From Bacteroidota bacterium (GTDB taxonomy: Bacteria > Bacteroidota > Bacteroidia > Chitinophagales > LD1), in contig JAOQAO010000265.1 of the NCBI GenBank assembly GCA_025963485.1, positions 1 through 57,412 on the forward strand: 57,412 nt of DNA, given 5' to 3'. The position numbers and the translations under genes are program-made. Shown in pieces: positions 17,218 through 57,412 of the stretch. The first letter of the stretch is position 1; the number at the start of each line of letters is the position of its first letter. The notes beneath the pieces were generated by a model that saw nothing but the letters and a program-made list of their open reading frames with translations, was not told the DNA's origin and made no database searches.

Positions 17218-17292
17218 CGGGGTGTAGCGCAGCCCGGTTAGCGCACCTGCTTTGGGAGCAGGGGGTCCCAAGTTCGAATCTTGGTACCCCGA
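17218..17292 (+). tRNA. tRNA-Pro(TGG); island integration target
   Basis: CGGGGTG/TACCCCG acceptor stem, cctgc-ttTGGga-gcagg anticodon arm, GTTCGAATC T-loop. Confidence 0.96.
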
Positions 17293-17294
17293 CA
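17246..17294 (+). repeat. attL core (49-bp direct repeat)
   Basis: cctgctttgggagcagggggtcccaagttcgaatcttggtaccccgaca, identical at 48403-48451. Confidence 0.95.
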
Positions 17295-18550: not shown

Positions 18551-19459
18551 TTATTCAATTATTCGAGAAATAATCTGTTTTACGACTGGCACACTTACCG
18601 CATTGCCCAAACATTTATACCTCTGTCCATCGCTGATACGTTTTGTATTTCCATTTTCATCCACGCCTCTTTCAGTCCAGCCATCAGGGAACCCCTGCAG
18701 CCGCTCACATTCGAGGGGTGTAAGTCGGCGTAATCTGCCATCAGATGCGGGTGTGAACACCTCCCCACGGGTAGTCAGGGTATGTGAAAGCCCCTTTGCG
18801 ACCCTTCCACGCCTGTACTTTGAGTTTGGGAATGAGATATCAACCCCATCACCTACAGCAGCTACAGCATAGCCGACTGATGTGGCTTCGCGCACTGCTA
18901 CAACAGGGTGGCCCTGTACAATATCCTTCGCCCTCGTCTCTCGGATAGGAAATACTTCGGGTCTGTACGTGCCTCTAATATTTCCAACAATGTAGACCCG
19001 CTGCCTGTTTTGGGCAAGCCCGAAATTCTTGCTGTCAAGCACCTGCCACTGTAGGTCATACCCCAATTCGTCAAGCGTACTGATGACTGTAGCAAAGGTT
19101 TTCCCTTCGTTGTGACTGAGAAGCCCTTTGACGTTTTCAAGCAACAGAAAGCGAGGCCGGCAGTGTTCGACAATCCTTGCGATCTCAAAAAAGAGATTTC
19201 CTCTGCTGTCATTGAATCCCTTTCTTTTGCCAGCAATGGAAAACGCCTGACAAGGAAATCCTCCGACCAGGAGATCAAAGGCTGGCAGGTCTTCGGGTTT
19301 GATTTTGGTAACGTCGCCATAGTTTTTGTGGTCCGGGAAATGGGAGCGATAAATGGAAATGGCGTAAGGGTCAATCTCGGAATACCCGATACACCGAGCC
19401 CTTTTGCCTATGCCCCTCTCAAAGCCCCCAATACCGGAGAATAGAGATAAGTAAGTCAC
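18551..19459 (-). CDS. DNA (cytosine-5)-methyltransferase, orphan
   Basis: LFSGIGG, GGFPCQ, ENV, QNRQRVY, RLTPLECERLQGFP and GNAV motifs; no adjacent restriction endonuclease recognised. Confidence 0.93.
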   Translation of the reverse strand: MTYLSLFSGIGGFERGIGKRARCIGYSEIDPYAISIYRSHFPDHKNYGDVTKIKPEDLPAFDLLVGGFPCQAFSIAGKRKGFNDSRGNLFFEIARIVEHCRPRFLLLENVKGLLSHNEGKTFATVISTLDELGYDLQWQVLDSKNFGLAQNRQRVYIVGNIRGTYRPEVFPIRETRAKDIVQGHPVVAVREATSVGYAVAAVGDGVDISFPNSKYRRGRVAKGLSHTLTTRGEVFTPASDGRLRRLTPLECERLQGFPDGWTERGVDENGNTKRISDGQRYKCLGNAVSVPVVKQIISRIIE

Positions 19460-19496
19460 ATGATTAAAGAACTAAGCTGATAATCTCGGAAAGCCT

Positions 19497-20669
19497 CTAA
19501 GGCGGGTCCTTGTCAGCCCCATGCACGATGCTGATGCCGCTAAACGGCTTGCTCGGCACGCCGTCTATCATCAGCTTCAAGAAGATGGAGTAGTTAGGCA
19601 AATTGATGAAATCCTCGACCTTAAAGGCTGGGTACATCTCGCGCGAGAGTATCTGCGCGTCCTCGGTACCGACCCGAAACGATATGAGGGTACCCGCGTT
19701 GCCGAGTATCGCCCTGCGCACATCGTCATCCATCTGATGCAGGTATTGGTTGGCGAGTATCAGACCTACTTTGAATTTGCGAAGCTCAGAGAACATGCCC
19801 ATGAGTGACTGCGTAGTGAAATTGTGGAACTCGTCCATGTAGACCATGAAAGGCACCCGCAATTCTTCCGCCGTATCTACTCGGCTAAATGCTGCGGAAT
19901 TAATCGAGCTGATGAACAATGCACCGAGCAGGTGCGCCACGTCCTCACCCACATGACCTTTCGAGAGATTGACCAAAATGATCTTCTTCTCATCCATAGC
20001 CTTTCTCAAATACACCTCCTCGGTGTTTTCTACTAGAACCCGCTTTATCACCGAGTGCGCGAGCATCCCGCCGAACTTGTTAAGTACGGGCAGCAGGTCA
20101 AACCTCGTATAGAATGGAAACTCCCGATCCCAAAAGAGGTTTACGCTCGGGTTTTCTACGTGGGATATACAACTGCGTCTAAAGGTCTTGTCCAATAGCA
20201 GCTTTGGAATATCAGCCAGAGTAGCAGAGGGCTGGTCTAAGAGGGTCAAAATGGAATAGCGTAATATATGCTCCAACTTAACGCCCCACGCGTCTGACCA
20301 CAGTTTCTTGAATACATCCAAGATACTCGATGCTACAAGTGACCGTTTCTCGTAAGTCACTTTCTTGAATGGGTTGTACCTAAGAGTAAGAGCCGGGTTC
20401 GGTATGTCAAAATAAATAACGTCATCCTTACGCTCAGCCGGTATAGATTGATATATGCCCTCTACTAGATCGCTATGCGGGTCCAATATGCAGGCACCCC
20501 GGCCCGCGTAAACGTCCTGCAAGAACATGGTCTTAATCATCGTGGACTTTCCGGTGCCTGTCTTTCCCACGATGTAGGTATGCATCAGGCGGTCCTTCTG
20601 CCAGATGCCGAAAGGAGTGCCGGCATTTCTAAAGTCCGTCTTCGCAAAGTATGTGATGTCAGTTTTCAT
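19497..20669 (-). CDS. TraG/TrwB/VirD4-like ATPase without a membrane anchor
   Basis: Walker A GKTGTGKS, Walker B YMDEFHNF, SELRKF..GLILANQ and GNAGTLISFRVG motifs. Confidence 0.85.
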   Translation of the reverse strand: MKTDITYFAKTDFRNAGTPFGIWQKDRLMHTYIVGKTGTGKSTMIKTMFLQDVYAGRGACILDPHSDLVEGIYQSIPAERKDDVIYFDIPNPALTLRYNPFKKVTYEKRSLVASSILDVFKKLWSDAWGVKLEHILRYSILTLLDQPSATLADIPKLLLDKTFRRSCISHVENPSVNLFWDREFPFYTRFDLLPVLNKFGGMLAHSVIKRVLVENTEEVYLRKAMDEKKIILVNLSKGHVGEDVAHLLGALFISSINSAAFSRVDTAEELRVPFMVYMDEFHNFTTQSLMGMFSELRKFKVGLILANQYLHQMDDDVRRAILGNAGTLISFRVGTEDAQILSREMYPAFKVEDFINLPNYSIFLKLMIDGVPSKPFSGISIVHGADKDPP

Positions 20670-20862
20670 ACTGTCAGTGTTCCAAGAAACAGAGGCGCAG
20701 CATACTGAAGCAAAATCTCCATCACAACAAATTGACGTAGGGTATTCAAGCGATAAAACAGTAGTGAGTTTTTGTTGCTAGAAACAAATAGCCTGCATTT
20801 AATACGGCCTTCGTAGTTGCTAGCCTTTATCTGGGAATATTCCTTCACAAAAAAATATCATC

Positions 20863-21741
20863 ATGGAAGCAACGGAGAAAAAAGACGTCTATGCAATCGC
20901 TACGGAGAGAATCATCGCACACCTCGAAAACGGTACTATTCCTTGGCGCAAGCCCTGGACGGATGCCGGCATACCGATGAACTTTGTCTCCCGCAAGCCC
21001 TATCGTGGCATCAACCTACTGCTCCTGAACCTTTGCGGATATACGCGCAACCTCTTTCTGACATTCAAGCAGATTAAGGCGCTCAAAGGGACGGTCAGGA
21101 AGAACGAAAAGGCCCATCCCGTGCTCTTTTGGAAGTGGGTCAAAAAGGATGCAAAGGACAAAAGACCGGTCAGCGAACTGACGACGAAAGACCTGAGGCC
21201 GATACTGCGCTACTACATGGTCTTTAACGTCGAGCAATGCGCTAACCTGCCGGACGCGCTTGTCCCTGACATCAGAAAGCCAAACGAGCCGCTTCTTGAA
21301 TGCGAGGCGGTGCTCGATGGGATGCCGTCACCGCCGAAGATCGTTCACGAGCTTCACAGGGCCTGCTACTATCCCGCAAGCGATACGATCAACATGCCGA
21401 GGATCGAGACGTTCACGAGCAGCGAGACCTACTACGGGACCCTCTTTCACGAGCTTGTGCATAGCACCGGACATGTAACCCGGCTTAACCGCAAGGAACT
21501 TATGGAAAACAACTCGTTTGGGTCTGCTGACTATTCTCTCGAGGAGCTGACCGCCGAAATTGGAGCGAGCTACCTTTCCTCGCATACCGGCATTATGATT
21601 GACGACTATGCAGGCAATGCCGCGTATATACAGGGATGGCTTGCTGTGCTCAAAAACGACAAAAGGTTCATCGTCTATGCGAGCGCACAGGCGCAAAGGG
21701 CCGTCGAACACGTCTTAAACCTTGGGCTATCATCGGAATGA
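20863..21741 (+). CDS. ardC: ArdC family antirestriction protein (ssDNA-binding plus zincin-like domain)
   Basis: PWRKPW, YRGIN, TFKQ, VFNVEQ, HELVHSTGH, YSLEELTAE and AYIQGW motifs. Confidence 0.92.
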   Translation: MEATEKKDVYAIATERIIAHLENGTIPWRKPWTDAGIPMNFVSRKPYRGINLLLLNLCGYTRNLFLTFKQIKALKGTVRKNEKAHPVLFWKWVKKDAKDKRPVSELTTKDLRPILRYYMVFNVEQCANLPDALVPDIRKPNEPLLECEAVLDGMPSPPKIVHELHRACYYPASDTINMPRIETFTSSETYYGTLFHELVHSTGHVTRLNRKELMENNSFGSADYSLEELTAEIGASYLSSHTGIMIDDYAGNAAYIQGWLAVLKNDKRFIVYASAQAQRAVEHVLNLGLSSE

Positions 21742-22139: not shown

Positions 22140-22180
22140 CTCCAGTGTTATGCCGCGAGCCATAAGTATATGCTTTGGGA

Positions 22181-23119
22181 ATGGCAGCACTCAAAGACGA
22201 TTTTGAAAACTACATCAACGAATGCACCTACGGCAAAAGATTACGCCCCGCTACCATCAAGGCATCTAAGGAAGCATACAGGCAATTTGCGCGTGTAGTT
22301 CCCGAGATAGAAACATCGGAAGATGTTACACCCGCAGTCCTCACGGTATTTTTCCAGCGGCTCCAAACCCGTGAGCGTACCGTGGGGCGAGATACCAAGG
22401 TAACAGGTATTAAGGACGTCACGATCCGAGCGTATGCGGGCAGGCTAAAAACGTTTTTCAAATGGCTGAAAGACCGCAAGCACATTTCAGATAATCCGTT
22501 TGACACCTTCAAGATACCCACTCCGCAATTTACAGATCACCGGGCGCTCACGGGTGATGAAATTAAGCGGATCATGGGATGTATAGTGCAGCATTCAGGT
22601 TCGACCTTCATCATGAGGCGTGACTTGGCAATGATCGGCATACTGACATTCTGCGGCCTCCGCCGGACTGAGCTGATATCCCTCGAAATGAGGGACGTGG
22701 ATATAGAAGCGGGATTCATAACAGTGCGTAGTGAGACTTCAAAATCAAAGCGCACCCGTAGGCTTCCGATCAATATATTCCTAAGGCCTTACCTAAAGGA
22801 ATACATCGAAGTAAGAAAGCAACGAAAGTGTAAGGCGATCAGGTTCTTTGTGTCCCAAGGTAAAGATCGCGATCTCACTCTACATGGACTGAAACATTGG
22901 GTAGAGAGGATAGTAAAAAAGTCAGGTGTGCGCTTCCATCTACACAGGTTACGTCACACATTTGCTACAAACTTAGGTATTCAAGGTGTTGGGGCCATCA
23001 AAATACAAAAGCTCATGGGTCACTCAGATTTGAGAATGACACAAATGTATCTACGATCTATAGAGGCAGAGGAATTATCAGAGGACATGAATAAGATATC
23101 GTTTGAAAATCTCGCTTAG
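22181..23119 (+). CDS. Tyrosine recombinase (XerC/D-like)
   Basis: GLRRTE, KSKRTR, HRLRHTF and MGHSDLRMTQMY: complete R-K-H-R-H-Y set. Confidence 0.93.
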   Translation: MAALKDDFENYINECTYGKRLRPATIKASKEAYRQFARVVPEIETSEDVTPAVLTVFFQRLQTRERTVGRDTKVTGIKDVTIRAYAGRLKTFFKWLKDRKHISDNPFDTFKIPTPQFTDHRALTGDEIKRIMGCIVQHSGSTFIMRRDLAMIGILTFCGLRRTELISLEMRDVDIEAGFITVRSETSKSKRTRRLPINIFLRPYLKEYIEVRKQRKCKAIRFFVSQGKDRDLTLHGLKHWVERIVKKSGVRFHLHRLRHTFATNLGIQGVGAIKIQKLMGHSDLRMTQMYLRSIEAEELSEDMNKISFENLA

Positions 23120-23905: not shown

Positions 23906-23978
23906 GCCATTGTAGCTCAGTTGGCAGAGCAACGGTTTTGTAAACCGTAGGTCATCGGTTCGACCCCGATCAATGGCT
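23906..23978 (+). tRNA. tRNA-Thr(TGT), island-borne
   Basis: GCCATTG/CAATGGC acceptor stem, TAGCTCAGTTGGCAGAGC D-arm, acggt-ttTGTaa-accgt, GGTTCGACCCC T-arm. Confidence 0.92.
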
Positions 23979-24011
23979 CATTAAGATAGCGTGGTTATCT
24001 CACCACACTAT

Positions 24012-24917
24012 ATGGATATAGAATTACTAGCCCGTAGATTTTATGACTACTACCTTTTAGAGCGCCGACTTTCGATACATACCGTCAGGTGCATTAGAGG
24101 ACATCTGAATTACTATAGAAAGTTCTCCGGCTTTACCGCGATTGAGCAAGTGACTGAAAAGAGCATCCAGGAGTTCTTCGTGTTTGGCCGCGTCACAAGG
24201 AACTGGAAGCCACATTCGACTATTAGGTGCTACCAGTCGCTTACTGTCTTTTTCAGATGGTGTCATAAGCAAGGCTACATTGGGTCAAATCCTTTGCCTC
24301 ATATAGAACTGCCAAAGCCTGATAAACAACTTCCGAGAGGTGTAGTAAAGCAGGATGCTCTAAAGATTTTGGAGATTGCGTATAACTATCCTTATAAATC
24401 GGAGTTTCTACGGTGCAGGAACCATGCGATCTTCGCCATGTTCATCCATACTGGGCTTCGAAAAAGCGAGTTGCTGAACTTGAAGTATACCGACGTAGAC
24501 ACCGAAAACCTTACGGTCTTTGTGACCAGGGGCAAGGGTGCAAAGGACAGGATAGTACCAATGAGCTACACGCTGGCCCAATCTCTCAAAAGATATTTGG
24601 TAGAGCGAAAAAAGCTCAACAAGACATGCTCCCACTTCTTTGCTTCGCTTCTGCTCAACAAGGCTTTCACGGACACAGGCATAAGACGATTGGTAACTAA
24701 GATTTCAAAAGCATCTGGTATCAAGTTCAGTTTGCACAAGCTCAGACACACGTTTGCCACACTCATGCTGGAGGGCGGATGCGATATTTACAGCCTGTCC
24801 CGCATGATGGGTCACTCGGATATCAAGACTACTACTATCTATCTCTCGGCTTCCGTGCAACATCTGAGATCACAAGTAAGCAAGCATCCTCTTAATGATC
24901 TTGTCAGATATGCGTAG
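24012..24917 (+). CDS. Tyrosine recombinase (XerC/D-like)
   Basis: GLRKSE, GKGAKDR, HKLRHTF and MGHSDIKTTTIY motifs. Confidence 0.94.
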   Translation: MDIELLARRFYDYYLLERRLSIHTVRCIRGHLNYYRKFSGFTAIEQVTEKSIQEFFVFGRVTRNWKPHSTIRCYQSLTVFFRWCHKQGYIGSNPLPHIELPKPDKQLPRGVVKQDALKILEIAYNYPYKSEFLRCRNHAIFAMFIHTGLRKSELLNLKYTDVDTENLTVFVTRGKGAKDRIVPMSYTLAQSLKRYLVERKKLNKTCSHFFASLLLNKAFTDTGIRRLVTKISKASGIKFSLHKLRHTFATLMLEGGCDIYSLSRMMGHSDIKTTTIYLSASVQHLRSQVSKHPLNDLVRYA

Positions 24918-31494: not shown

Positions 31495-32047
31495 CATCTT
31501 GCTTTTTTTGAATTGCCTGATTGCCGCGGCGTGTATGGCGCAGAAGCCCTATGCGATGCTGTGCGACTTGAAGCCCGTTGCTACCGGCAGGGATATGGAT
31601 GTTGTCTCAAGCGCCGGGTGCCTTGATTGCGATGCGGTCTTGCACGGACCTGACACTGCTACTGCCACTAGGCTAAAACGCAATAAGGAATGGATGTCCG
31701 CATACGATGCGCTAAAGGCGAAAGGGTGGCACTATGACAGCGCAAAAGCGTATCACATTGCCTCTGATAGCTTCCTGCGAGCCATCCGCTCCACGCATTA
31801 TTCCATCCTCCTTAACCGCCCTTACGCATCGCTCGGATTGGGCAAAGACCAAAACAGTTCCAGTCCTGAGTGCCAATTTTCATCAGAGGACGGAGTGATT
31901 GGCACTGTGCGGTTTCGCGTGGTATGTAGTGATTGCCCTTATTCCAAACGGAAAACTTTGTATTACATTTTTGCTTATGGGAAAAGCGGGATTGTCGTCA
32001 GGCACGGGCTGGCAGAATTAAAAAGTAGTCACAAACCCAAAAAATAG
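31475..32047 (+). CDS. Hypothetical exported protein
   Basis: Signal peptide ending MAQ; overlaps the protease stop; two CxxC pairs. Confidence 0.65.
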   Translation: MSMYKTSILLFLNCLIAAACMAQKPYAMLCDLKPVATGRDMDVVSSAGCLDCDAVLHGPDTATATRLKRNKEWMSAYDALKAKGWHYDSAKAYHIASDSFLRAIRSTHYSILLNRPYASLGLGKDQNSSSPECQFSSEDGVIGTVRFRVVCSDCPYSKRKTLYYIFAYGKSGIVVRHGLAELKSSHKPKK

Positions 32048-32053
32048 TTTCTC

Positions 32054-32084
32054 AGTGGTCACCTTCACAGAGGTGGCCACTTTT
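32054..32084 (+). repeat. Conserved hairpin, degenerate copy
   Basis: agtggtcacct-tcacag-aggtggccact-ttt; related to 35820 and 39016. Confidence 0.65.
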
Positions 32085-32104
32085 CTCACTTTTGAATAGA
32101 TAAA

Positions 32105-32790: not shown

Positions 32791-32885
32791 TTTTTTATGA
32801 TTCAAGGTTACTCCTCATAGGGGCGAGTTCTTATTCTCTCCTGTTAAACAATTAAATCCCGACCTCATACGTCTTATTGAACTCC

Positions 32886-34094
32886 ATGAAAAACCTGAAC
32901 GTCATATCCGAGGACGAAAAAAAGTCCTTCGACCCGCTTCTCCAGAACATCATCGCCTACCGAAAGTCGGGATTGAGCCTCAATCACATCATTGGCTGCT
33001 CGCTCGACTGCGCGTACTGCGTCAGGCACTTCTTCGACAATTTTGAAATGAAGGAGCCGCAGATGCTTTGTAGTGACGAAGAAGCTGTAAACCAATTGGT
33101 CAATCATCAGTTCTTCATACCGAACGTGACACCCCTGCAATTATTCAATCGGGCAACCGATCCGTTTCTGACCGACGTAAAGAAGCACACGCACGAAGTC
33201 CTCAGGAGGCTCGACGGCATGGGTCTGACGAATCAGGTTCTTGTCATTACGCGGGCAAAAGTCACGAAGGAGGACATGGAGTTGCTGGAACAGCTAAAGA
33301 ACCTGCACGTATCACTTCTCGTAACCTATTCGGGAATTACCGACGTTAGGATAGAGCCCATTGCGAAGAATGGAATCACAGTACATTCGATAGAGACAAT
33401 CGCCCGATATAAGACGCGAACAAAGCTCATTCTCTATTGGCGTCCTATAGTGGTAGGATGGAATGACGACCCGGCCAGCTTTGAAAGGGTCTTTTGGATG
33501 GCGAGGTATGCGGATGCCATTGTCTATACGGGCTACTATCACCGACCTGAAAACCATGCCTACCTGAAAAGCATGGGCATACCAGTTCCTTACGGCGACT
33601 TTGCGCGTAGAAAGTTCCTACCCAACGAGCTTGAGAACAGGATTTTTGAGGCTTACAAGAACTCGGGGCTGACCGTACCCCTCTTTAGGAAAACGTCGTG
33701 CGGGGTGGCATACGCGCATAGGGTTCCCGATTACAACGGTCACTGGGGCGTCAATGAGCTGTGCGATATCTGTCCGAAGGAACAGAGAGACTTGTGCGAC
33801 AAAGGATACCAGGCACCCACCAGGGATGAGTTTCAAAAGCTTTTGGACGTGTATAATTACGATACTCCTTTTCTTATCGAGGATGGACACGTTTGGACTG
33901 AGGGTTTGGGAGAGGAACGACGCTACCACCTGCAACATACGCTTGGGTACCAGATATGGGACATTGAAAAGCCCCACTTCAAAAACCAGCACGGGCGCTC
34001 GCCATTCGGGCATGAGCAGACCAAGGAAAACGAGGCCTGGTATGAGGACATTAAAAGACAATTCACTAACGACATAAAGAAAGAAGATGACTGA
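32886..34094 (+). CDS. Radical SAM protein, spore photoproduct lyase/Rv2578c-like
   Basis: GCSLDCAYC (CxxxCxxC), ATDPF, RPIVVGWND; extra C-terminal Cys (KTSCG, CDICP..C). Confidence 0.88.
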   Translation: MKNLNVISEDEKKSFDPLLQNIIAYRKSGLSLNHIIGCSLDCAYCVRHFFDNFEMKEPQMLCSDEEAVNQLVNHQFFIPNVTPLQLFNRATDPFLTDVKKHTHEVLRRLDGMGLTNQVLVITRAKVTKEDMELLEQLKNLHVSLLVTYSGITDVRIEPIAKNGITVHSIETIARYKTRTKLILYWRPIVVGWNDDPASFERVFWMARYADAIVYTGYYHRPENHAYLKSMGIPVPYGDFARRKFLPNELENRIFEAYKNSGLTVPLFRKTSCGVAYAHRVPDYNGHWGVNELCDICPKEQRDLCDKGYQAPTRDEFQKLLDVYNYDTPFLIEDGHVWTEGLGEERRYHLQHTLGYQIWDIEKPHFKNQHGRSPFGHEQTKENEAWYEDIKRQFTNDIKKEDD

Positions 34095-34731
34095 ACTACA
34101 AAAATACAATCTGCCGTGGTGGCAATCGAGTTTCATCATCCTCGATCTCGAGGGGACCGGCTCCCAGCATAAGGAACTGGAGGGTATTGTTGAAATTGCA
34201 GCAATCGAGCTAAGCGGCAAGCAACTCACATCTAACTACTATTACAAACTCATCAATCCTCAGATTGAGATTCCTCCGATGATCTCTAAGATACACGGAT
34301 TGAAGAATAAGGATTTGGAAAATGAGCCCGACTTCAGCGTAATAAGGGAAGGGCTGTTCGATTTCATAAATGGCAAGATACTCGTCGGCCATAACGTGAG
34401 CGTAGACTACCGGGTGCTCAAACTCAAGATGCCTGACTACTGTCCATTGCTCATACTCGACACCAAGAAGATATCGAAACACTTTTGGGGCTCTGAACCG
34501 AAACACGGACTGGACGAACTGATCGAACGGTTCGGCATCAAGGACCAACTCACCGACTTGCCCGTAAAGAGGAACAGGCACAGTGCCTACTATGATGCGT
34601 ATGCCACCGGGCTGGTCTTTTTGAAAATGATTGAAGAAAAGCTGTCGGATGAAACGACCCTATCAGCGCTGGCGAATATTTGCAGCATTAACCCTGAATC
34701 CGACAAAAAGAGCCAAGGGTCACTATTTTAA
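34087..34731 (+). CDS. DEDDh 3'-5' exonuclease (DnaQ-like)
   Basis: ExoI LDLEGTG, ExoII GHNVSVD, ExoIII HSAYYDA. Confidence 0.92.
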   Translation: MTELQKYNLPWWQSSFIILDLEGTGSQHKELEGIVEIAAIELSGKQLTSNYYYKLINPQIEIPPMISKIHGLKNKDLENEPDFSVIREGLFDFINGKILVGHNVSVDYRVLKLKMPDYCPLLILDTKKISKHFWGSEPKHGLDELIERFGIKDQLTDLPVKRNRHSAYYDAYATGLVFLKMIEEKLSDETTLSALANICSINPESDKKSQGSLF

Positions 34732-34740
34732 AGAGAGAAA

Positions 34741-35316
34741 ATGGAAAAGATAAAAATAGGAATTGGAGGAACGCACAGCACAGGCAAGACCACGTTCATC
34801 AAAAGACTTTCTACGGCACTTACAGAAAAGTCAGTAGATCACCAGATAATAGGCGACCTGGCATCAAAGTGCCCGTTGCCGATTCTTCGCGATCATACTG
34901 TGGAAAGCACCCTTTGGATTGCTTCACAAGGAATTAACCTGGAGATTGAAGCTGGCCACAAGCACAAGGTTGTAATAGCAGACAGGCCCATACTGGACTG
35001 CTGGGCGTATTTCAATGCGGTTTGCAAAGGGCAATATCCCGAGACCAATCCAAAATTGCAGACATTGAAATCAATGATTTTAAATTGGCTACCTACGTAC
35101 GACCTGCTCTACCAAACCGTGGTAAATGAGAATATCCCGATAGAGGACAACAAGGGACGCGATTTAGACATCGTTTATCGTAGACGGGTCGCCGACGAAA
35201 TGACTGCCGGGAGCGTGCTGTTTAATGCCTCTCCTAAGCTTCTAACGTACGAAAATACTGACCAGGAACTCCAATTTATCCTCGACCAAATAGAGGGAGC
35301 AATCGGTAAATCCTAA
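34741..35316 (+). CDS. P-loop NTPase, nucleoside/nucleotide kinase-like
   Basis: GGTHSTGKTT Walker A; IADRPILD..AY; lid-like EDNKGRD. Confidence 0.82.
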   Translation: MEKIKIGIGGTHSTGKTTFIKRLSTALTEKSVDHQIIGDLASKCPLPILRDHTVESTLWIASQGINLEIEAGHKHKVVIADRPILDCWAYFNAVCKGQYPETNPKLQTLKSMILNWLPTYDLLYQTVVNENIPIEDNKGRDLDIVYRRRVADEMTAGSVLFNASPKLLTYENTDQELQFILDQIEGAIGKS

Positions 35317-35782: not shown

Positions 35783-35819
35783 CTCCGTCCACAACGGTTA
35801 ACCGTTGTAAAGTTTTCAT

Positions 35820-35862
35820 AGGTTCAAAAGTGGTCATCTCGAAAGAGGTGGCCATTTTTTGC
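35820..35862 (+). repeat. 43-bp conserved hairpin/terminator repeat, copy 1
   Basis: aggttcaaaagtggtcatctcgaaagaggtggccattttttgc; 39/43 identical to 39016-39058. Confidence 0.85.
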
Positions 35863-35963: not shown

Positions 35964-37712
35964 ATGGAGCGCCCTGCCATCCAACTCATTCTCGATTATA
36001 AAACGTTCTTTGGCGCTGACCCAACGAATGACAGGCTCTCCCTCGTACGACATATCTGCAAAAGGAACCTTCTGGTAGAAATTGCCGGCTTGAATTACAG
36101 GTTGAAGCCCAACGATACTATATTTGTTGACGAAAGCTTCGACAGACAACGTAAGGAACTCGACTGGTTCACAAAAAATCCCGATCTCTATAGATACTAC
36201 TCGCAAATCGCTGCCCGTTATACAAAGAGCGTTGACGATTATCCCAATATTTTTAATCGCCCTGCTTGCTTATTCGCTCTGGAGGAAATTTCCAATTCTG
36301 ACATACCTGAAATAGAGGATTTCAATTTCACGAAACCGGAGGAATGGGAAAGTATCTTAAAGTACCTGCTCGCAGTTAATTTCCATATCACCCAGATTAA
36401 AAAGGAAAAGGACGGGGTTCAAGCTTCTTTCGAGAAAGTGAACCCCAAGCTGATCAGACTAAACGAACTCAGAGTAAAGACCGATCCGCTCTTTACTCTC
36501 TACAGGGGATATCGACTTATCACATATTTTGCAAGGAATCCTACTTATGCAAAGCACTTAGCGGAGTATTTCAATAAGACTTACGGGATGGATTACCAAT
36601 TTTTCCTTTCCTCTATCCTTCACATGTACAAGGCAAAAGTAAATGCCATTCCTGAAAATAACTTTTTGTTTAAACTAGGACGTTGCCAAGATTCTAGATT
36701 CCTCGATGCGCTAAGTAAACGTCACCGTGAGGAAAATGCTCTGCTGTTACTAGGCATCAGAAAGTCGCCATTCATCAAGCTCGCTCCGAGGGAATACATA
36801 ATGGGCGACAATGCCTTCTTGCTCGAAAAAACCTACTACCAGTTCATCAATGACTTTTGGTTTGACTGCATCAAACAAATATTGAAGCCGGACGGGAAAA
36901 ATCTGATTTCTCACCAACGTTATTTCGCGGATGTAGGGGTGTTCTTCGAGGAGTACCTGCGCGAGATACTGACGAATAGTTTTAAGAACTACGTCGCCTC
37001 AGTCCTTCTCACCTTTGACCAGCTAAAGCTCACCGGTGCGCAGGGCGAATTCGAGCTTTGCGACATCTACTTCCGTGCCGATCGGAAAGTGATAATCGGG
37101 CAAGCTAAAGCCACTGGTATATACGATGAGGCAAAATACGGAGGCGATATAGGTAAGCTTTACAAGGAAGATAGAGCGAAATTTTTCAAAAACTTCGGCG
37201 TCGATCAAGTAGTGAAGTCAATAAAAGACCTTTCTGCAAATATAAATCGCTTGGATACCACCTTCCCATCGACTGGCGAATGCGAGGTATATCCTTGCAT
37301 AGTCGTAAACGATAAGGCGCTCCAAACTGCATTAATGAATCATGTTTTCAACCTGAGATTCCAAGAGCTCATAACCGGCTTTTCTGACAAAAACCTTAAG
37401 GTTCACCCCCTGACGCTCATACATGTGATGGATCTCGAAAACGTAGAGGAAGCCCTTTCAAGTAATCCGCAACTTATTTGGAACCTGCTGGATAATACCA
37501 TTGGTCACCCCGCATTCCTTATGCCCTTCTACACCTCAGTTTACAAGCTTTTACCGCACATCTCATACCCCGCAAAGTTGCTCACGGCTTTTACCGAACT
37601 GTTTGATAAGCATAATTCGCAATTTAAGTTTTCATTAACCCGAATTACAAACAAGCTTATCGACCGCATCAAAGGATTGCCCAATTTACGAAAGAATGGA
37701 TTGGCGGTGTGA
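35964..37712 (+). CDS. Hypothetical protein with a C-terminal PD-(D/E)XK/NERD-like domain
   Basis: 582 aa; GVFFEEYL...ELCDIYF......IIGQAKA (E..D..QxK); GVDQV. Confidence 0.65.
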   Translation: MERPAIQLILDYKTFFGADPTNDRLSLVRHICKRNLLVEIAGLNYRLKPNDTIFVDESFDRQRKELDWFTKNPDLYRYYSQIAARYTKSVDDYPNIFNRPACLFALEEISNSDIPEIEDFNFTKPEEWESILKYLLAVNFHITQIKKEKDGVQASFEKVNPKLIRLNELRVKTDPLFTLYRGYRLITYFARNPTYAKHLAEYFNKTYGMDYQFFLSSILHMYKAKVNAIPENNFLFKLGRCQDSRFLDALSKRHREENALLLLGIRKSPFIKLAPREYIMGDNAFLLEKTYYQFINDFWFDCIKQILKPDGKNLISHQRYFADVGVFFEEYLREILTNSFKNYVASVLLTFDQLKLTGAQGEFELCDIYFRADRKVIIGQAKATGIYDEAKYGGDIGKLYKEDRAKFFKNFGVDQVVKSIKDLSANINRLDTTFPSTGECEVYPCIVVNDKALQTALMNHVFNLRFQELITGFSDKNLKVHPLTLIHVMDLENVEEALSSNPQLIWNLLDNTIGHPAFLMPFYTSVYKLLPHISYPAKLLTAFTELFDKHNSQFKFSLTRITNKLIDRIKGLPNLRKNGLAV

Positions 37713-37741
37713 GACAATGATTGTTACATTTGATAGTTACT

Positions 37742-38614
37742 ATGGAACATCCTCTTACAAAGAAGCATCACTACATCCCCGAATTCTTCATAAAGAACTT
37801 CTGTGATGAGGATGGGAAAATCTACATCTACGACAAACTAACAAAGCGATATCTGGGAAAGAAAAGCCCTGGAGGCATCTTCTACGAGATGCATAGGAAT
37901 ACCATAGACATCAACGGCACTAAAACTGACAATTTTGAAAAGCTGTACTCGGCCCTCGACGACCGGTTTGCAAAGGCGATAATCCGCGTCATTACTACTA
38001 AAGTCCTAAACGTAGAAGAAGACCTCATGAGTCTCCTGTTATTTGCCTCAACTTTGAAATGGCGAGTACCTGCAATCGACGCCTCTTTCAAGGAACTAAA
38101 AGAAAATTTGAAGTACGAGGATTTACCAATTACCATCAAGCCAGTTGATAAAAACGATGAGGTGAATGCCGAAATGCTCGACCACATTATAAATTCAAAT
38201 GCATTTAAGGAATCCATGAGAACAATAATTCCTTCCATCCCATTTCTTAAGAGCGGAGAAAAATTATTGGGCTATAACGACGGAAGTTTTATCTATACTG
38301 ATGAGAGGATCATTTCGGTTCTTGGTGACTGCGGTTTGGTCGAAATACAGGGAGGCGCCTTTGATGAGTTGAACAGCTTTGTGATGCCATTGAGTAGTCA
38401 TACTACTTTCGTTTACAAAGCAGGAAACAGGCGGTCAATCAAATCATTGGCTTTCTTTATGGCCCGTGACCTTTTATCCGTTCACCGATCCGAAAGGTAC
38501 GTAGGCTGCAAAAGCAAGGAACACCTTGAAAACGTAATTAATACCTATAACGGCGTAAGCGACAAAAGGTCGGCGGACGCCCTCGAACATGTTCTTTTTG
38601 AGGATATTTCATAA
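37742..38614 (+). CDS. DUF4238 domain protein
   Basis: N-terminal TKKHHYIPEFFIKNF, FEKLYS.LD, WRVP, LGD and MPLS motifs. Confidence 0.85.
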   Translation: MEHPLTKKHHYIPEFFIKNFCDEDGKIYIYDKLTKRYLGKKSPGGIFYEMHRNTIDINGTKTDNFEKLYSALDDRFAKAIIRVITTKVLNVEEDLMSLLLFASTLKWRVPAIDASFKELKENLKYEDLPITIKPVDKNDEVNAEMLDHIINSNAFKESMRTIIPSIPFLKSGEKLLGYNDGSFIYTDERIISVLGDCGLVEIQGGAFDELNSFVMPLSSHTTFVYKAGNRRSIKSLAFFMARDLLSVHRSERYVGCKSKEHLENVINTYNGVSDKRSADALEHVLFEDIS

Positions 38615-38981: not shown

Positions 38982-39015
38982 ACGCGCCTGGCTCATAAGA
39001 TATTTGCTTTTACAC

Positions 39016-39058
39016 AGGTTCAAAAATGGTCATCTCGATAGAAGTGACCATTTTTTGC
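39016..39058 (+). repeat. 43-bp conserved hairpin/terminator repeat, copy 2
   Basis: aggttcaaaaatggtcatctcgatagaagtgaccattttttgc. Confidence 0.85.
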
Positions 39059-39163: not shown

Positions 39164-40060
39164 TCATAATATCGTTTCATCAATCCCTCTGTCATACTCC
39201 TCCAATTCATTCAGCCGCTCTTGCTCCTCAGTCACATTGTCATCAAGTGTCTGGGTCAGTTCCTGTTCTATGTTCGGTTCATTTACTATTTCGTTTAATC
39301 GCTGTTCACGCTGATCGAGCTCTGCGAGGTCAGCCCCTAAGGTCGCGAATCTGTAGTTGCGGTTATCCCTGATGCCAGCTACTTTTCCTGACCTCTCGTA
39401 GGTTTCCAATCCTTCGCCACGTAGCAATCCGAAAAAAGTATCTCTTGATGTAGCCAATTCCATCGAGTCCGCCACAATCTGTTCGATTTCGCTTTTCCGG
39501 CTCACCTTGCCGGCGTTGGTCATCTGCCATTCGTTCTCGCTGATGCTCCGTTCATCCTTGCCGTGCTCGATGTTGGAATACACTAGCTCGGGATAAAGTT
39601 CGCGAGATATCCTTTCGAGCTCCTGCTTCATATTTTTGAAGTCCTGCTTTGACTGCCTCGTGCTGTAGCCCATCATGTCAACGCCCGAGGTCAGGACGTG
39701 GCTATGAGGGTGCTTGCCGGGCTCCGACATATGAAGTACGCCGTAGTGCAGGGCATCGGGGTACATCTTCATGTACTCTCGGCTCAGCCTGATCAGCATG
39801 TCGCTCGTCACTTCGTCCTTGTTCGACAAGGAAAATATCATATGAAGAAGCATGTTGTTGTTGCCGTCGCCGCGCTTGTGAACCCTGCCGGCCTCATTGG
39901 CTTTGAACTGTTCCAAGATTTCCTCGGGACTGCCGAATACGTTGTGCTTGATGCTGATGATGTCGTTGTTCTTGTCCCTGAGGGCTGCGTCCCTGTTGAC
40001 GTAGTCGAGAAGGTACGAGAAGCTGCCGCCTCCTTTAGCTCCTATGGACTTTATCATCAT
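39164..40060 (-). CDS. Relaxase/mobilization nuclease
   Basis: N-terminal YLLDYV, LLHMIFS, HUH motif VLH....KHPHSH. Confidence 0.88.
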   Translation of the reverse strand: MMIKSIGAKGGGSFSYLLDYVNRDAALRDKNNDIISIKHNVFGSPEEILEQFKANEAGRVHKRGDGNNNMLLHMIFSLSNKDEVTSDMLIRLSREYMKMYPDALHYGVLHMSEPGKHPHSHVLTSGVDMMGYSTRQSKQDFKNMKQELERISRELYPELVYSNIEHGKDERSISENEWQMTNAGKVSRKSEIEQIVADSMELATSRDTFFGLLRGEGLETYERSGKVAGIRDNRNYRFATLGADLAELDQREQRLNEIVNEPNIEQELTQTLDDNVTEEQERLNELEEYDRGIDETIL

Positions 40061-40605
40061 GGCCTACGCTTGCTATCGGTGATGAGAGCTATGATTTCAT
40101 TCCACCTTTCAGGGTGTGCTGCAATGGTCGCCAGCAGCAGCGTAGGATTTGTGAGCTCATTGTGCACCTGCGTTTTCATTTCTCGCACGCTTTGGCGCAG
40201 CTCGCTATAGTCATTGTCCCTCATGATCCAGTTCTTCGTTTCTCTCGCGGCTATCCGCTCTATCGCCGTAAGTACACGCGAAAGGTGCGCCTCGATCCGC
40301 TTCACTGCGACTGCATCAGGAGCGACATATACTTGCTGCACGTAAGCCAATCCTGACTGCTTCAAAAAAGTCGAGAGCGGCATGGTGCGAAGTTTTGCCT
40401 CGCGAGCCATGCGCTTATTCTCCTCAGGTGTGAGTGTTATCTTCACTTCACATAAACGCCCCCTCCGTCTTGCCTGATACTCCTTATTCTTCATTGCCCA
40501 GTATCTCTGACGCGCCTCCGCGATCTCCAGCGCGTCGCCCTTTTCCAAAAGCCCTTCGATAGACTGCAAGTAGTCCAATACGCCAGATGACTTCCTGCGG
40601 CTCAT
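40057..40605 (-). CDS. MobC-like relaxosome accessory protein
   Basis: VKITLTPEE...AK...MPLSTFLK ribbon-helix-helix-like segment; 4-nt overlap with the relaxase. Confidence 0.6.
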   Translation of the reverse strand: MSRRKSSGVLDYLQSIEGLLEKGDALEIAEARQRYWAMKNKEYQARRRGRLCEVKITLTPEENKRMAREAKLRTMPLSTFLKQSGLAYVQQVYVAPDAVAVKRIEAHLSRVLTAIERIAARETKNWIMRDNDYSELRQSVREMKTQVHNELTNPTLLLATIAAHPERWNEIIALITDSKRRP

Positions 40606-42035
40606 GAAAACTGTATGAGGTCTAATGTTTCGGGAATATGAGGATTTGAAAAAACGAAGGCCGCGCCCTTCGTTCGCATCCTAAGTATGGGGTTCTTGAA
40701 CCAAGGCTGGAGCGTAAGCCTGAAAGGCTGGTTGCGGTAAAAGAGCAGCCCGCGATCTTTAGGCATCTTCGCTATCTCCTCGGGCTTCATGAGGTGCTCG
40801 CTGCGCTTCCTGCCGTCAGCCCCCTTAAAGTCGCTCTTGCAGAGCTCAGCGAGGTCGCGGCTTGTACTTATATCTTGATGTCCGTAATAGGCATGGGAGC
40901 AATTAAGCAAAATATTTCTTCCAATTTGTGCTCCATAGGCATCAATCATTTGCGAGGGAGATTGGTAAAAAATACAGTTCTTCAAATTGTATTTTTTCGA
41001 GTTAGATACGCACTGCGAAAGCGATTTTAAATTCAATGTGCTGCACTCGTCCAGGAGCAGGTACACCGGCAGTCCGCCATCAGGCACCTGCTTCATGAGC
41101 GTGCGGAGCGCACTCTCTATTACGATGCTCGTAAGATTGTTATAAAAAAAGCTGTCATAGGTGCCCGTTTCTATGTATAGGATTTGCCGCTTGTCACGAA
41201 AGGTGGAGAAGTCTACTGATGACTTCACGGACGCTCTGCACAGCGCGTCTGACGAAAACGGATTGAGGGCCACGAGCGCGCTCATGATGATCCCCGACAT
41301 GGTCTTGTCGCTCGCCGTGCTCCTGTAATACTTGTATTCATCCCAGAGCTTAGGGGTAGCAGCCTTAGCCACCAACTTGTCGAGCATGCCCTTCGTGCTC
41401 AATGCCTGAATGATCTGCCTGACGCAGCCCATGTGTTTGTATCGCGGCTCAAGCCTACGGCACATGCGCATGGCCCATGAGGTCAGGCCTACGGCAGAGC
41501 TATTGAAAAACATGTCCGCCTTCTCGCCGTCAAGCGCGGTGCGCACGAAGTGGTCAGCAAGTAAGTTGGCATCTTCATCAGACGTTGCGTAGTCAAGGAG
41601 GTTAATGCTGCTAGAAGCCAAAATATCTGAGTACGAGAGCCGGTGTATCTCGACGCCCATTTCTGCCATGCGCGGCGCGGTGAGAGGAAACACCGTACCC
41701 GAGCTGTCATGCACGATGTATGAAGCATTGGAGCTATAGAGCAGCGTGGGAATTAAGCAATTGCTTGTTTTTCCAACGCCTGTGCTGCCGAACACGGCGA
41801 GATTGTTGATTCTCTCGAGGTCGAGAGCATTTTCCCCGTCTATGACGAATCCTTCGCCGTGCCTCTCTGCGATATCTTCGAGCTTTCCAAAGCTCCGCCT
41901 GACACGGCTGCCATCTGCTCGCTCTATCGTTTCGCGTATGTTGGTCACGATGTCAGTAGCCACCATTTCGGCGGCCGCGGCCCCTATGCCGGCGAGCTTT
42001 CGGAACGATGACGAAAACATGCTGCTGTCACTCAT
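40602..42035 (-). CDS. Type IV coupling protein (TraG/VirD4 family)
   Basis: Walker A GSTGVGKT, Walker B LLLDEC, FYQSPSQM...YG and LMKPEEI motifs. Confidence 0.87.
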   Translation of the reverse strand: MSDSSMFSSSFRKLAGIGAAAAEMVATDIVTNIRETIERADGSRVRRSFGKLEDIAERHGEGFVIDGENALDLERINNLAVFGSTGVGKTSNCLIPTLLYSSNASYIVHDSSGTVFPLTAPRMAEMGVEIHRLSYSDILASSSINLLDYATSDEDANLLADHFVRTALDGEKADMFFNSSAVGLTSWAMRMCRRLEPRYKHMGCVRQIIQALSTKGMLDKLVAKAATPKLWDEYKYYRSTASDKTMSGIIMSALVALNPFSSDALCRASVKSSVDFSTFRDKRQILYIETGTYDSFFYNNLTSIVIESALRTLMKQVPDGGLPVYLLLDECSTLNLKSLSQCVSNSKKYNLKNCIFYQSPSQMIDAYGAQIGRNILLNCSHAYYGHQDISTSRDLAELCKSDFKGADGRKRSEHLMKPEEIAKMPKDRGLLFYRNQPFRLTLQPWFKNPILRMRTKGAAFVFSNPHIPETLDLIQFS

Positions 42036-47018: not shown

Positions 47019-47045
47019 AAAAAAAACCGCATCATCTGCGGTTTT
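47019..47045. terminator. Bidirectional terminator at the integrase 3' end
   Basis: aaaaccgca-tcatc-tgcggtttt. Confidence 0.7.
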
Positions 47046-48255
47046 ACAATTCAAACACCTTGCGACTGTACTCATCGGTGGTTTTCTTCGGCAGACTATC
47101 GAGATAGCGCTGGGTGGTCCTCAAATCCTTATGGCCCAAGAACTCGCTGATAGCGGTGAGCGGTATACCGATGTCATTGGCACGAGTGGCAAACGTATTT
47201 CTGATCACGCTGCTCGATACCTCCTCCGGCAACCCGTAGGCAGGTGCAAACTCTTTCAGGATTTTGTTGAACTTCCTGCGCTTGTCGAGCACCTGGTAGT
47301 ACTGCTTCTTCGGGTCTGTGGAAGTGATGCAAGGCAGTATGTAGTCTTCGGGTCCCTTTCCTTTGGCGTAGAGATCAATGATGTCTTTTGCCTGCGGTGG
47401 TATCTCGATGTCGAGCGGGCTACCTGTTTTCCTCCTGTCATATTTGAGGCGGCCGTGATTCATATACTTCATCTTAAGATAGGCCAGATCAACGAAGCTC
47501 ATGCCGCGCAAAAAGTACATCAGCAAGAAAAAATGCCTGACCCATTGATGCTTTCTCTTTTGAGTTTCTGTCAGCGCCACGACCGTCTTGACCGATGATT
47601 CAGGCATCGCCTTCTTGCCCGTGCGCTTGCCTTTGATCTCATAGAGCTTGAAAGGATAGAGATCAGCATCTACCAAGCCCTTTTTAATCGCCTTGTTGTA
47701 GATAGCGCGCACCGTCCTCAAATAAACCGAAAGGCCATTGACCTTATTGCCCTTGGCATAGTGCGCCGTCTCAAAATCAGTAAGGAAGTCGTAGTTAATC
47801 TCCCTGAAAGTGAGATCGCGGCCTTTGTTGAAGTTACGGAATGCGGCAACGGTGTCGCTATAAACCCTGGCGTTTCCGATCTGCTGTGCCTTTTCCATAG
47901 CCTCAATGAGCTCAGTGGCAAATGCGAAGAACGACTGAGTTCCTTTCTTGCCTTCGAGGTGCTGCTTGATCTGCTTCGCCGTCATGCCGGTGAGCCTGCC
48001 CGCCTCGTCGAGTTTGGTGATCTTGTCAGTAGCTAGTGTCTGCTTTTTCAGTAAATAGTTGTTGAGCCGGGTTACCGACTGTGTGCCTCGGTAAGAAGGA
48101 GTGATGCATCTTGCTTCCTCGTCCCAATACTCAGGCTTGACGGCTATGCCGGTAATGACCTGCGCAGGCTTCCTAAAGTGCACGATTCGGAGAACGACGT
48201 GGCAGGTTCCGTCGGGCTTAGGGTGATTGTCGAGTGCGAGTTTTACAGTAGTCAT
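47044..48255 (-). CDS. Site-specific tyrosine integrase, Bacteroidota arm-binding type
   Basis: N-terminal arm domain (KPDGTC.V.LRI...TGI.V....WD), SAM-like domain, GMSFVD, RRKTG, VIRNTFAT and LGHKDLRTTQRY; next to attR. Confidence 0.93.
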   Translation of the reverse strand: MTTVKLALDNHPKPDGTCHVVLRIVHFRKPAQVITGIAVKPEYWDEEARCITPSYRGTQSVTRLNNYLLKKQTLATDKITKLDEAGRLTGMTAKQIKQHLEGKKGTQSFFAFATELIEAMEKAQQIGNARVYSDTVAAFRNFNKGRDLTFREINYDFLTDFETAHYAKGNKVNGLSVYLRTVRAIYNKAIKKGLVDADLYPFKLYEIKGKRTGKKAMPESSVKTVVALTETQKRKHQWVRHFFLLMYFLRGMSFVDLAYLKMKYMNHGRLKYDRRKTGSPLDIEIPPQAKDIIDLYAKGKGPEDYILPCITSTDPKKQYYQVLDKRRKFNKILKEFAPAYGLPEEVSSSVIRNTFATRANDIGIPLTAISEFLGHKDLRTTQRYLDSLPKKTTDEYSRKVFEL

Positions 48256-48402: not shown

Positions 48403-48451
48403 CCTGCTTTGGGAGCAGGGGGTCCCAAGTTCGAATCTTGGTACCCCGACA
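48403..48451 (+). repeat. attR core (3' half of tRNA-Pro)
   Basis: Identical to 17246-17294; lacks the 5' half of the tRNA. Confidence 0.95.
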
Positions 48452-48749: not shown

Positions 48750-48802
48750 CGCATCCCGACTTCGGTCGGGAGGGTCCCAAGTTCGAATCTTGGTACCCCG
48801 AC
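48743..48802 (+). other. tRNA-Pro-derived fragment with the anticodon arm replaced by a UUCG hairpin
   Basis: cggttagcgca[tcccgac-ttcg-gtcggga]gggtcccaagttcgaatcttggtaccccgac; both flanks identical to tRNA-Pro. Confidence 0.9.
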
Positions 48803-48811
48803 TTGAAAATC

Positions 48812-56600: not shown

Positions 56601-57412
56601 AATACGGCCGTAGGTACACTTGTGCTGAGTGCAAATACCACGGGGGCACAAAATACTGCTATCGGCAGTGCGGTATTGGCCGCCAATACTATAGGAACAA
56701 ACAATGTCGGTATTGGTTACGCGGCTCTGCAGCAGAATACAACCGGATCCATCAATATCGCATGCGGTTGGAGTGCATTATACAACAATACCACAGGTAA
56801 CGGCAATATAGCTGTGGGTGGCTTTGCCCTCATGGCCAATACTAAAGGTTCAAGCAATAACGCATTCGGCTATCAGGCTTTGCAAAACAGTTCTACATCG
56901 AATTTCAACAGCGCCTTTGGGACCAGTGCCGGGTATAGTACGACCAGTGGTGCACAAAATACAGCTATCGGCTACCGGGCCCTGTACTCCAATACTACAG
57001 GTCTTAATAATACTGCTATCGGCTACCTCTCAAATGTATCCGACACAGCACTGATCAATAGTACCGCTATAGGCGCCTTCGCCTATCCGGCGCAGAGCAA
57101 TACTGTCGTGATCGGCTCCATCAGCGGGATCAATGGCGCTCCTGCTACTGTCAATGTCGGCATAGGTACCAATACCCCAACCAGCAGGCTCGAAGTAGCA
57201 GGCAATACAAAGACTACCAACCTGCAGATGACAAGTGGCGCTGCTGCAAACTATATCCTGCAAAGTGATGCGGCAGGTAATGGCGCATGGGTAAACCCTG
57301 CGACACTCGCCGCGAGTGCTAATGCCTGGTCGACCAGCGGCAACTCTGGCCTGACCGCTGCTACAAACTATATGGGTACAACAGATGACATAGATGTCGT
57401 ATTCCGGCGCAA
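50658..57412 (+). CDS. Giant collagen-like surface/fibre protein (partial, runs off the window)
   Basis: MKKIHCLF signal peptide; [12 protein letters not shown]...SVPYALFA domain; ~1550 aa of Gly-[19 protein letters not shown] domain; NTAxG..AL..NTTG repeats; same frame at 51015, 55701 and 57321. Confidence 0.92.
51048..55700 (+). repeat. Collagen Gly-X-Y coding repeat with higher-order block duplications
   Basis: GGN codon every 9 nt (GPT, GAT, GTN, GAN); recurring blocks such as ggcggaggtgcgacgggt. Confidence 0.95.

Follow-up and report, generated by a model that had tools for sequence, protein, structure and literature searches.

A mobile radical SAM, exonuclease and kinase cassette predicted to direct a modified nucleotide against phage DNA

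A mobile element of a Bacteroidota bacterium carries three coupled genes for a radical SAM enzyme, a DEDDh exonuclease and a P-loop kinase. This cassette is real, conserved, mobile and apparently undescribed; outside any named family, it most likely resembles viperin-type systems in its working, with DNA as the target and a clamp-tethered self-protection. We propose, with a probability of about 0.45, that it makes and activates a modified nucleotide which would enter DNA and block phage, while the clamp-bound exonuclease would guard the host. The window, i.e. the whole stretch of DNA that was analysed, comprises 57,412 nt of assembly GCA_025963485.1 (contig JAOQAO010000265.1, positions 1 to 57,412, forward strand) and contains the following cassette features.

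32886..34094, plus strand: radical SAM enzyme (P0001, 402 aa) of an uncharacterised family in the SPL/PA0069/Rv2578c branch, the predicted modifying enzyme
33699..33797, plus strand: four-cysteine C-terminal motif of the enzyme (C272, C293, C296, C304), a predicted second metal site
34087..34731, plus strand: DEDDh 3'-5' exonuclease (P0002, 214 aa), DnaQ/PolC-exo/ExoX-like, the predicted self-protecting proofreader
34714..34728, plus strand: QGSLF at the C-terminus of the exonuclease, a predicted beta-clamp-binding motif of the QxxLF type
34741..35316, plus strand: P-loop nucleoside/NMP kinase (P0003, 191 aa) with a NadR/thymidylate-kinase fold

The three open reading frames share the plus strand, are joined by an 8-nt overlap and a 9-nt gap, and have intact motifs, exactly as the first-pass annotation of this DNA had described; an in-frame TTG at 32877 would lengthen the enzyme by three codons. 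The same annotation had placed the trio near a DUF4238 gene. Such a gene is present at 37721-38614, but it does not cluster with genes of related loci, and neither do the downstream reading frames of 130 and 582 amino acids; for this reason all three were excluded as members of the cassette. The 582-aa frame (35964-37712), which has no match in Pfam, NCBIfam, PADLOC or PHROG, is coupled to the DUF4238 gene and possibly forms a defence pair with it.

A scan of GTDB yielded 253 relatives of the enzyme, and the gene counts refer to the best 80 of these 253 loci, six of which reach a contig edge; related loci among them are not independent. The numbers were taken from frame-checked sets and are unaffected by one out-of-frame alignment row (L014). 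The exonuclease follows the enzyme in 79/80 loci. A P0003-family kinase is present in 29 and missing from 51, and the exact trio in identical order was found in 28 loci of several phyla, a repetition that is more than chance. An NDP kinase (NDK) is encoded in 45 loci, so that one or the other nucleotide kinase occurs in 74/80. An aldo-keto reductase (AKR), which the window locus does not have, is present in 32 and a glycosyltransferase-like gene in 31, and neither a thymidylate synthase-like gene (TS) nor NDK ever accompanies the P0003-family kinase (0/80). DUF3800 lies upstream in merely seven. The kinase form is spread over Bacteroidota, Pseudomonadota, Nitrospirota, Myxococcota, Acidobacteriota and others and has no conserved trigger or regulator; the TS-NDK form is a single actinomycete group, beside which a quick tree places the enzyme of the window among those of other Bacteroidota.

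A second search, anchored on the kinase, covered the best 80 of 189 metagenome loci. Among the 50 of these with at least 1.5 kb of upstream sequence, 43 have the enzyme, 42 the exonuclease and 37 both; in eight of the 80 the exonuclease is missing while enzyme and kinase are present. Conservation of the trio across taxa, on which the first-pass proposal depended, holds in so far as the trio recurs widely, but it is not invariant: loci L001 and L075 have enzyme and kinase only, and L009 and L068 lack the kinase. Loci with enzyme and kinase only indicate that the predicted immunity gene is not always encoded.

The trio had been described as island cargo, and this could be substantiated, since it lies within a 31,206-bp element that is integrated at tRNA-Pro, is bounded by att-like repeats and encodes its own integrase, relaxase and coupling protein.

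17246..17294, plus strand: attL-like copy of a 49-bp repeat that marks the left end of the element, located at the 3' end of tRNA-Pro(TGG)
39164..42035, minus strand: relaxase, NikA-like mobilisation protein and type IV coupling protein, the mobilisation genes of the element
47044..48255, minus strand: tyrosine integrase adjoining attR (Phage_integrase, SAM-like and arm domains)
48403..48451, plus strand: attR-like copy, identical over its 49 bp, that marks the right end

A single copy is present in the host genome. Searches did not detect the enzyme in any of 400 other genomes of the phylum, nor the DNA in any of 30 relatives, which characterises the trio as rare mobile cargo. There was no match among 50,697 phage records and only four loci were present in IMG/VR, so that a phage genome-modification gene is unlikely.

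Several further features of the surroundings were recorded. A strong hairpin (z -5 to -6.8) closes cargo blocks in three copies (32038-32087, 35813-35862 and 39009-39058); with nine copies in the genome, three of them clustered on contig C49, it is a terminator or a cassette-boundary repeat. A tRNA-Thr followed by an integrase (23906-24917) and a further integrase (22175-23119) lie within the tRNA-Pro element and probably mark nested elements, and a third, degenerate att-like copy is located at 48755-48803. The left end of the element (18551-21741) encodes a C5 cytosine methyltransferase, a coupling-protein-like ATPase and an ArdC-type anti-restriction protein. From about 51000 to 57400 the window contains a very long gene of collagen-like Gly-X-Y repeats and then NT-rich repeats.

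P0001 belongs to the radical SAM superfamily: its CxxxCxxC motif (C38/C42/C45), set on a partial TIM barrel, is invariant, and the fold matches of its AlphaFold model (pLDDT 84.6) are radical SAM enzymes. The extra C-terminal cysteines noticed in the first-pass annotation are kept in distant family members; in a wide alignment of 41 proteins with 24-53% identity C272, C293 and C296 are invariant (41/41) and C304 is present in 40/41. We infer that the four residues form a second metal site, either for Zn or for an auxiliary Fe-S cluster. The top fold match is SPL (Z 15.8, rmsd 4.0, 261 aligned residues, ~10% identity), tied with the PFL activase (Z 15.3, rmsd 3.4, 223 aligned); the scores of viperin (Z 13.4) and OxsB (Z 8.5) are lower. 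The enzyme is SPL-like rather than viperin-like, as had been suspected, both by these Z scores and by the lack of a PADLOC model match: the pVip profile did not detect P0001 and no PADLOC family matched at E 0.01, while the pVip model of the same library works, having matched another protein. SPL, the type enzyme of the fold, acts on DNA.

At the sequence level P0001 is not a member of the SPL family. It matches no Pfam family at E 0.01, and phmmer and two profiles found neither an SPL chain nor another relative among solved structures. In SPL the hydrogen-donor cysteine (C140/C141) lies ahead of the TD motif; on a tentative mapping it may correspond to positions 88-94 of P0001, where no conserved cysteine is present. 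Nor does P0001 score as a member of the PA0069, Rv2578c or radical SAM mobile pair B groups: TIGR04470 scores 17.5 bits at a cut-off of 410, and models of the PA0069/Rv2578c type give no match at E 0.001, with weak matches of the PA0069 model in 21/41 members of the wide family and of the Rv2578c model in 6/41. With SPL and the PA0069/Rv2578c-type proteins the enzyme has the best-matching fold and a TDP motif in common, but it differs from them by its low identity of ~10%, by the added four-cysteine region and by its operon with nucleotide enzymes. For the enzyme 2199 relatives were found, and in their sources relatives carry the automatic name 'DNA repair photolyase'; matches in the ESM Atlas were confined to clusters of the enzyme's own family, none of them named. 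One close family member is fused to an NDP kinase. In distant members (P0237, P0273, P0203, P0178, P0199) the fusion partner is a TIR, MazG, nucleoside deoxyribosyltransferase-like or GT2 domain.

P0002 matches RNase_T (PF00929, E 2e-21) and, by profile, most closely the PolC exonuclease, ExoX and epsilon. All DEDDh hallmarks are present (DxE in ExoI, D in ExoII, HxAxxD in ExoIII), and DxEGxG together with HxAxxD occurs in 78/78 homologues; the ExoII residue is D in P0002 and E in many alphaproteobacterial homologues. The C-terminal tail ends in a pattern that agrees with the beta-clamp-binding consensus given in the accessible parts of PMC3919608 and PMC12926913. Qxx[LMF][FLW] was found within the last 14 residues of 69/78 full homologues (64/78 for a stricter pattern), in 15 of 17 exonuclease clusters at 60% identity, and in 49 of 63 exonucleases of the kinase-anchored metagenome loci (best 80 of 189). 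It is absent from 28 kinases, 80 enzymes, 32 AKR, 44 NDK, 44 TS and 29 glycosyltransferase-like proteins, and its background rate is 29 in 3253 open frames of the host genome; the pattern was fixed after the exonuclease tails had been viewed, so this enrichment is not a blind test. A complex model of the exonuclease with the host's own clamp scored 0.56, compared with 0.18 for the best control, with at least 71% of contacts common to the runs and a partner pLDDT of at least 81. On the scale of the method a score of 0.56 is weak, as values up to 0.60 include 5 of 78 solved complexes and all four mismatches that passed among 180, and resemblance to solved clamp-peptide complexes, which are textbook structures, may account for it. 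The exonuclease is predicted to dock on the host beta clamp through its C-terminal tail.

P0003 matches AAA_28 (E 1.5e-7) and the thymidylate kinases of PHROG 2107 (E 5e-8). It contains GxHSTGKT and DRP, and its fold resembles that of the kinase domain in NadR (Z 17.5, rmsd 3.1, 175 aligned) and that of vaccinia TMPK (Z 15.7, rmsd 3.4, 178 aligned), with a lower score for AbmG (Z 11.9). The Walker A stretch G10-K16, the DR motif D81-R82 and the lid arginines R140 and R147 are invariant in 23 aligned kinases, which identifies P0003 as a kinase of the NadR/thymidylate-kinase type. Gp42 of Streptomyces phage Gilgamesh was considered as a cassette relative and rejected; its kinase match is weak and no cassette surrounds it.

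The actinomycete form, i.e. the 45 loci with NDK among the best 80 of 253, has a MilA-type CMP hydroxymethylase (the TS) upstream and NDK instead of the P0003-family kinase. The TS is closely homologous to MilA (E 8e-85) and has kept K133 and D186 in 48/48 sequences; position A176 is Gly in 38 and Ala in 10, never Ser. According to the accessible text of PMC5175136, A176 and K133 set the CMP preference of MilA, by a factor of five only; Tyr218 of the same source is not kept in the actinomycete proteins. Judged by these residues, the actinomycete form probably starts from a cytidine ribonucleotide. Such a start, combined with an exonuclease of the DNA fork at the end, hints at a remodelling of the sugar. 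The MilA homologue is found in this variant only and not in the window, and it is partnered with NDK, a P0001-family enzyme and the exonuclease and not with the MilB route of mildiomycin. Streptomyces loci on plasmids and in IMG/VR contain both kinases in the order TS-NDK-rSAM-EXO-KIN-AKR.

These genes could also be read as a DNA-marking system, in which a modified base in or on the DNA of the element or host would serve as a self mark or a restriction shield; in the actinomycete form this would resemble the hydroxymethyl-cytosine and glycosylation of T4, and exonuclease and kinase would recycle or limit the nucleotide. The combination of TS and NDK with a conserved glycosyltransferase-like gene (31 of the best 80 of 253 loci) fits such a function, as does the fold of SPL with its DNA-acting type enzyme, and on one plasmid glycosyltransferase, dioxygenase and nucleotide-sugar dehydrogenase genes adjoin the exonuclease. 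Searches of Pfam, PHROG and PDB gave no match for the glycosyltransferase-like gene, whose label denotes a motif resemblance. We nevertheless consider DNA marking unlikely: the TS retains the ribose-preferring residues of MilA, the sole base-modifying gene of the kinase form is the radical SAM enzyme, no clamp motif is present in the enzyme tails (0/80), and no conserved cognate modification-dependent nuclease was found among the clustered genes of related loci.

The exonuclease-kinase pair, clamp motif included, also occurs behind a radical SAM enzyme of MiaB-like type, for which the P0001 family profile gives no score (five metagenome loci and one IMG/VR contig). A common pair behind an unrelated enzyme indicates that the modifying enzyme is exchangeable. 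This exchange, the clamp motif and the TS/NDK/AKR variants had escaped the first-pass annotation. Among the cassette kinases those of the MiaB-like variant constitute a single group (SH-aLRT 99), and in an AU test a single clade of the kinases paired with P0001-family enzymes was not rejected (p 0.35), which leaves the exchange itself in place, while the swap may have run in either direction. The MiaB-like partner suggests base chemistry, against the sugar chemistry considered above. This variant was located at L146:2899-5561, L152:2388-4982, L163:163-2725, L164, L161 and L178:5998-8548, the last surrounded by phage-like genes, and had no match among the plasmids searched; its MiaB/MtaB-like enzyme has UPF0004 and Radical_SAM domains and no TRAM match, and no description of this separate cassette was found. 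Other arrangements were noted on plasmids. A Streptomyces variant (L212:601-7579, L093, L006) combines a GT4, a class II aldolase, a MurA-like enolpyruvyl transferase and a distant radical SAM enzyme with exonuclease and kinase, and in L209:2910-7175 a TauD dioxygenase, a GT-A and a nucleotide-sugar dehydrogenase precede exonuclease and kinase, and the annotation shows no gene for a radical SAM enzyme.

TS/NDK variants, the NDK fusion and the exchange of the enzyme all bear out the initial assumption of a modified-nucleotide pathway. An alternative would be repair or sanitation, in which the enzyme would reverse a damaged or phage-modified base, the exonuclease would trim lesions at the fork and the kinase would salvage nucleotides. 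A clamp-bound 3'-5' exonuclease suits fork repair, and SPL as top fold match and the automatic photolyase names of relatives point the same way. Biosynthetic partners such as MilA, NDK, MurA-like and MiaB-like proteins are unsuited to it, however, as are the patchy, mobile distribution (0/400 and 0/30, see above) and the lack of a sequence match at the level of SPL. Repair is in our estimation quite improbable, and plain repair is the weakest of the options named in the first-pass annotation.

An anti-phage function is predicted from the gene neighbourhood. PADLOC was run on 177 of 196 de-duplicated neighbour proteins (at least 130 aa) and on 14 hand-picked ones, and matches were judged by hand. 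A named defence system lies at most 8 kb away in 12 of 32 non-actinomycete GTDB loci, a figure counted without a matched mobile-element control that island location alone may explain; five more loci have candidates. The systems in these 12 loci are Kiwa with type I restriction-modification (RM), DRT9, type I RM, CBASS (twice), Gabija, Septu, short Argonaute (twice), Shedu, type II RM, and AbiE with Wadjet. Among actinomycetes the number is 2/25 (25 of 48 loci; 138/252 proteins, E 1e-30), where the PADLOC library may under-cover these hosts. The difference between 12/32 and 2/25 corresponds to a Fisher p of 0.013 for loci that are not independent. Within the element of the window no named defence system was detected among eight proteins scanned with PADLOC. 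In a close Bacteroidota-like relative, SLATT and AbiJ-domain genes follow downstream, and in L089:5042-10266 the trio directly follows SIR2-HerA genes amid phage structural genes.

No named system to which the cassette itself corresponds was found. In PADLOC-DB 2.0.0 the exonuclease has only generic DEDDh and PDC-S48 matches and the enzyme none, and the accessible parts of PMC10853773 and PMC8989533 contain no description of it. The first-pass statement that no named system has this trio stands for the PADLOC 2023 release and for the literature searched, which covered few subscription papers. Prokaryotic viperins likewise combine a radical SAM enzyme with an NMP-type kinase, and their analogues are chain terminators (accessible part of bioRxiv 2023.09.13.557418). 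They represent another radical SAM branch, given the absent pVip match and a fold Z for viperin below that for SPL, and their products act on RNA, whereas the clamp-motif DNA exonuclease of the cassette points to DNA. A linked kinase is found in 74 of the best 80 of 253 cassette loci, compared with 12% of bacterial viperins. Ophion, an anti-phage system, is likewise made up of three genes, which encode a radical SAM enzyme and include a proofreading-type domain (OpnA rSAM, OpnB PHP, OpnC PRTase; accessible part of bioRxiv 2025.09.30.679545). It carries PHP and PRTase where the cassette has DEDDh and an AAA_28 kinase, so the cassette is not an Ophion; OpnA is described there as viperin-related. 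The candidate list of the preprint, with more than 500 systems, could bear on the novelty of the cassette. For the AKR, OxsA/OxsB offers a precedent, as the radical SAM enzyme converts a nucleotide sugar into an aldehyde that needs reduction (available text of PMC7074753); OxsB is cobalamin-dependent, not homologous by fold ranking (Z 8.5) and paired with a phosphohydrolase, not with kinases.

The Photorhabdus 4'-thiothymidine cluster thmABC, too, consists of a radical SAM enzyme, a kinase and a self-resistance gene, and its product goes into DNA and blocks replication (accessible part of PMC12691670). This three-gene precedent, with an NTPase for resistance, lends substance to an antibacterial or addiction module, in which a nucleoside analogue would poison competitors or those cells from which the element has been lost and the exonuclease would be the resistance gene, in a role likened to that of thmC. 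The mobile location, a close homologue of MilA from an antibiotic pathway and the weak association of the actinomycete form with defence systems agree with such a module. Against it, no conserved exporter, phosphatase or nucleosidase is present among the genes of related loci, the kinases would trap the product in the cell, and loci without exonuclease exist; we therefore give it a small chance. As far as the available text describes it, thmABC has an NTPase for resistance, an AbmG-like kinase and an exported nucleoside and belongs to gamma-proteobacteria, unlike the cassette, which contains no NTPase gene.

For the anti-phage reading that we prefer, the following sequence of events is conceivable. 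The radical SAM enzyme would alter a nucleotide, most likely one of cytidine and most likely on the sugar, and the AKR, where present, would reduce a carbonyl intermediate. The kinase, as its fold suggests, would phosphorylate the product, be it a nucleoside or a monophosphate, and the triphosphate would be completed by kinases of the host. Polymerases would then incorporate the modified nucleotide into DNA, stalling phage replication. At host forks the DEDDh enzyme, tethered through its motif by the predicted binding to the clamp, would excise the analogue, while phage polymerases working independently of that clamp would get no such rescue. Phages that rely on the host replisome would share the rescue, which counts against this reading. 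Loci without exonuclease, the few defence neighbours in actinomycetes and the fact that product, toxicity and resistance are predictions keep our estimate for the mechanism at the value given at the outset, somewhat below even odds.

In a broader form, tentative and on balance doubtful, the cassettes would constitute a DNA-directed immune family with a fixed chassis of clamp-tethered exonuclease and kinase, an exchangeable modifying enzyme and a discrimination of self and non-self by the host clamp, in which the SPL-fold enzyme would generate a new natural, cytidine-derived DNA chain terminator by an undescribed radical reaction. If true, viperin immunity would have a counterpart that acts on DNA and protects the host by a new principle, and new radical chemistry and new natural nucleotide analogues could be drawn from it. 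The proposal offers a testable function for a radical SAM family that comprises more than 2000 clusters and has no annotation.
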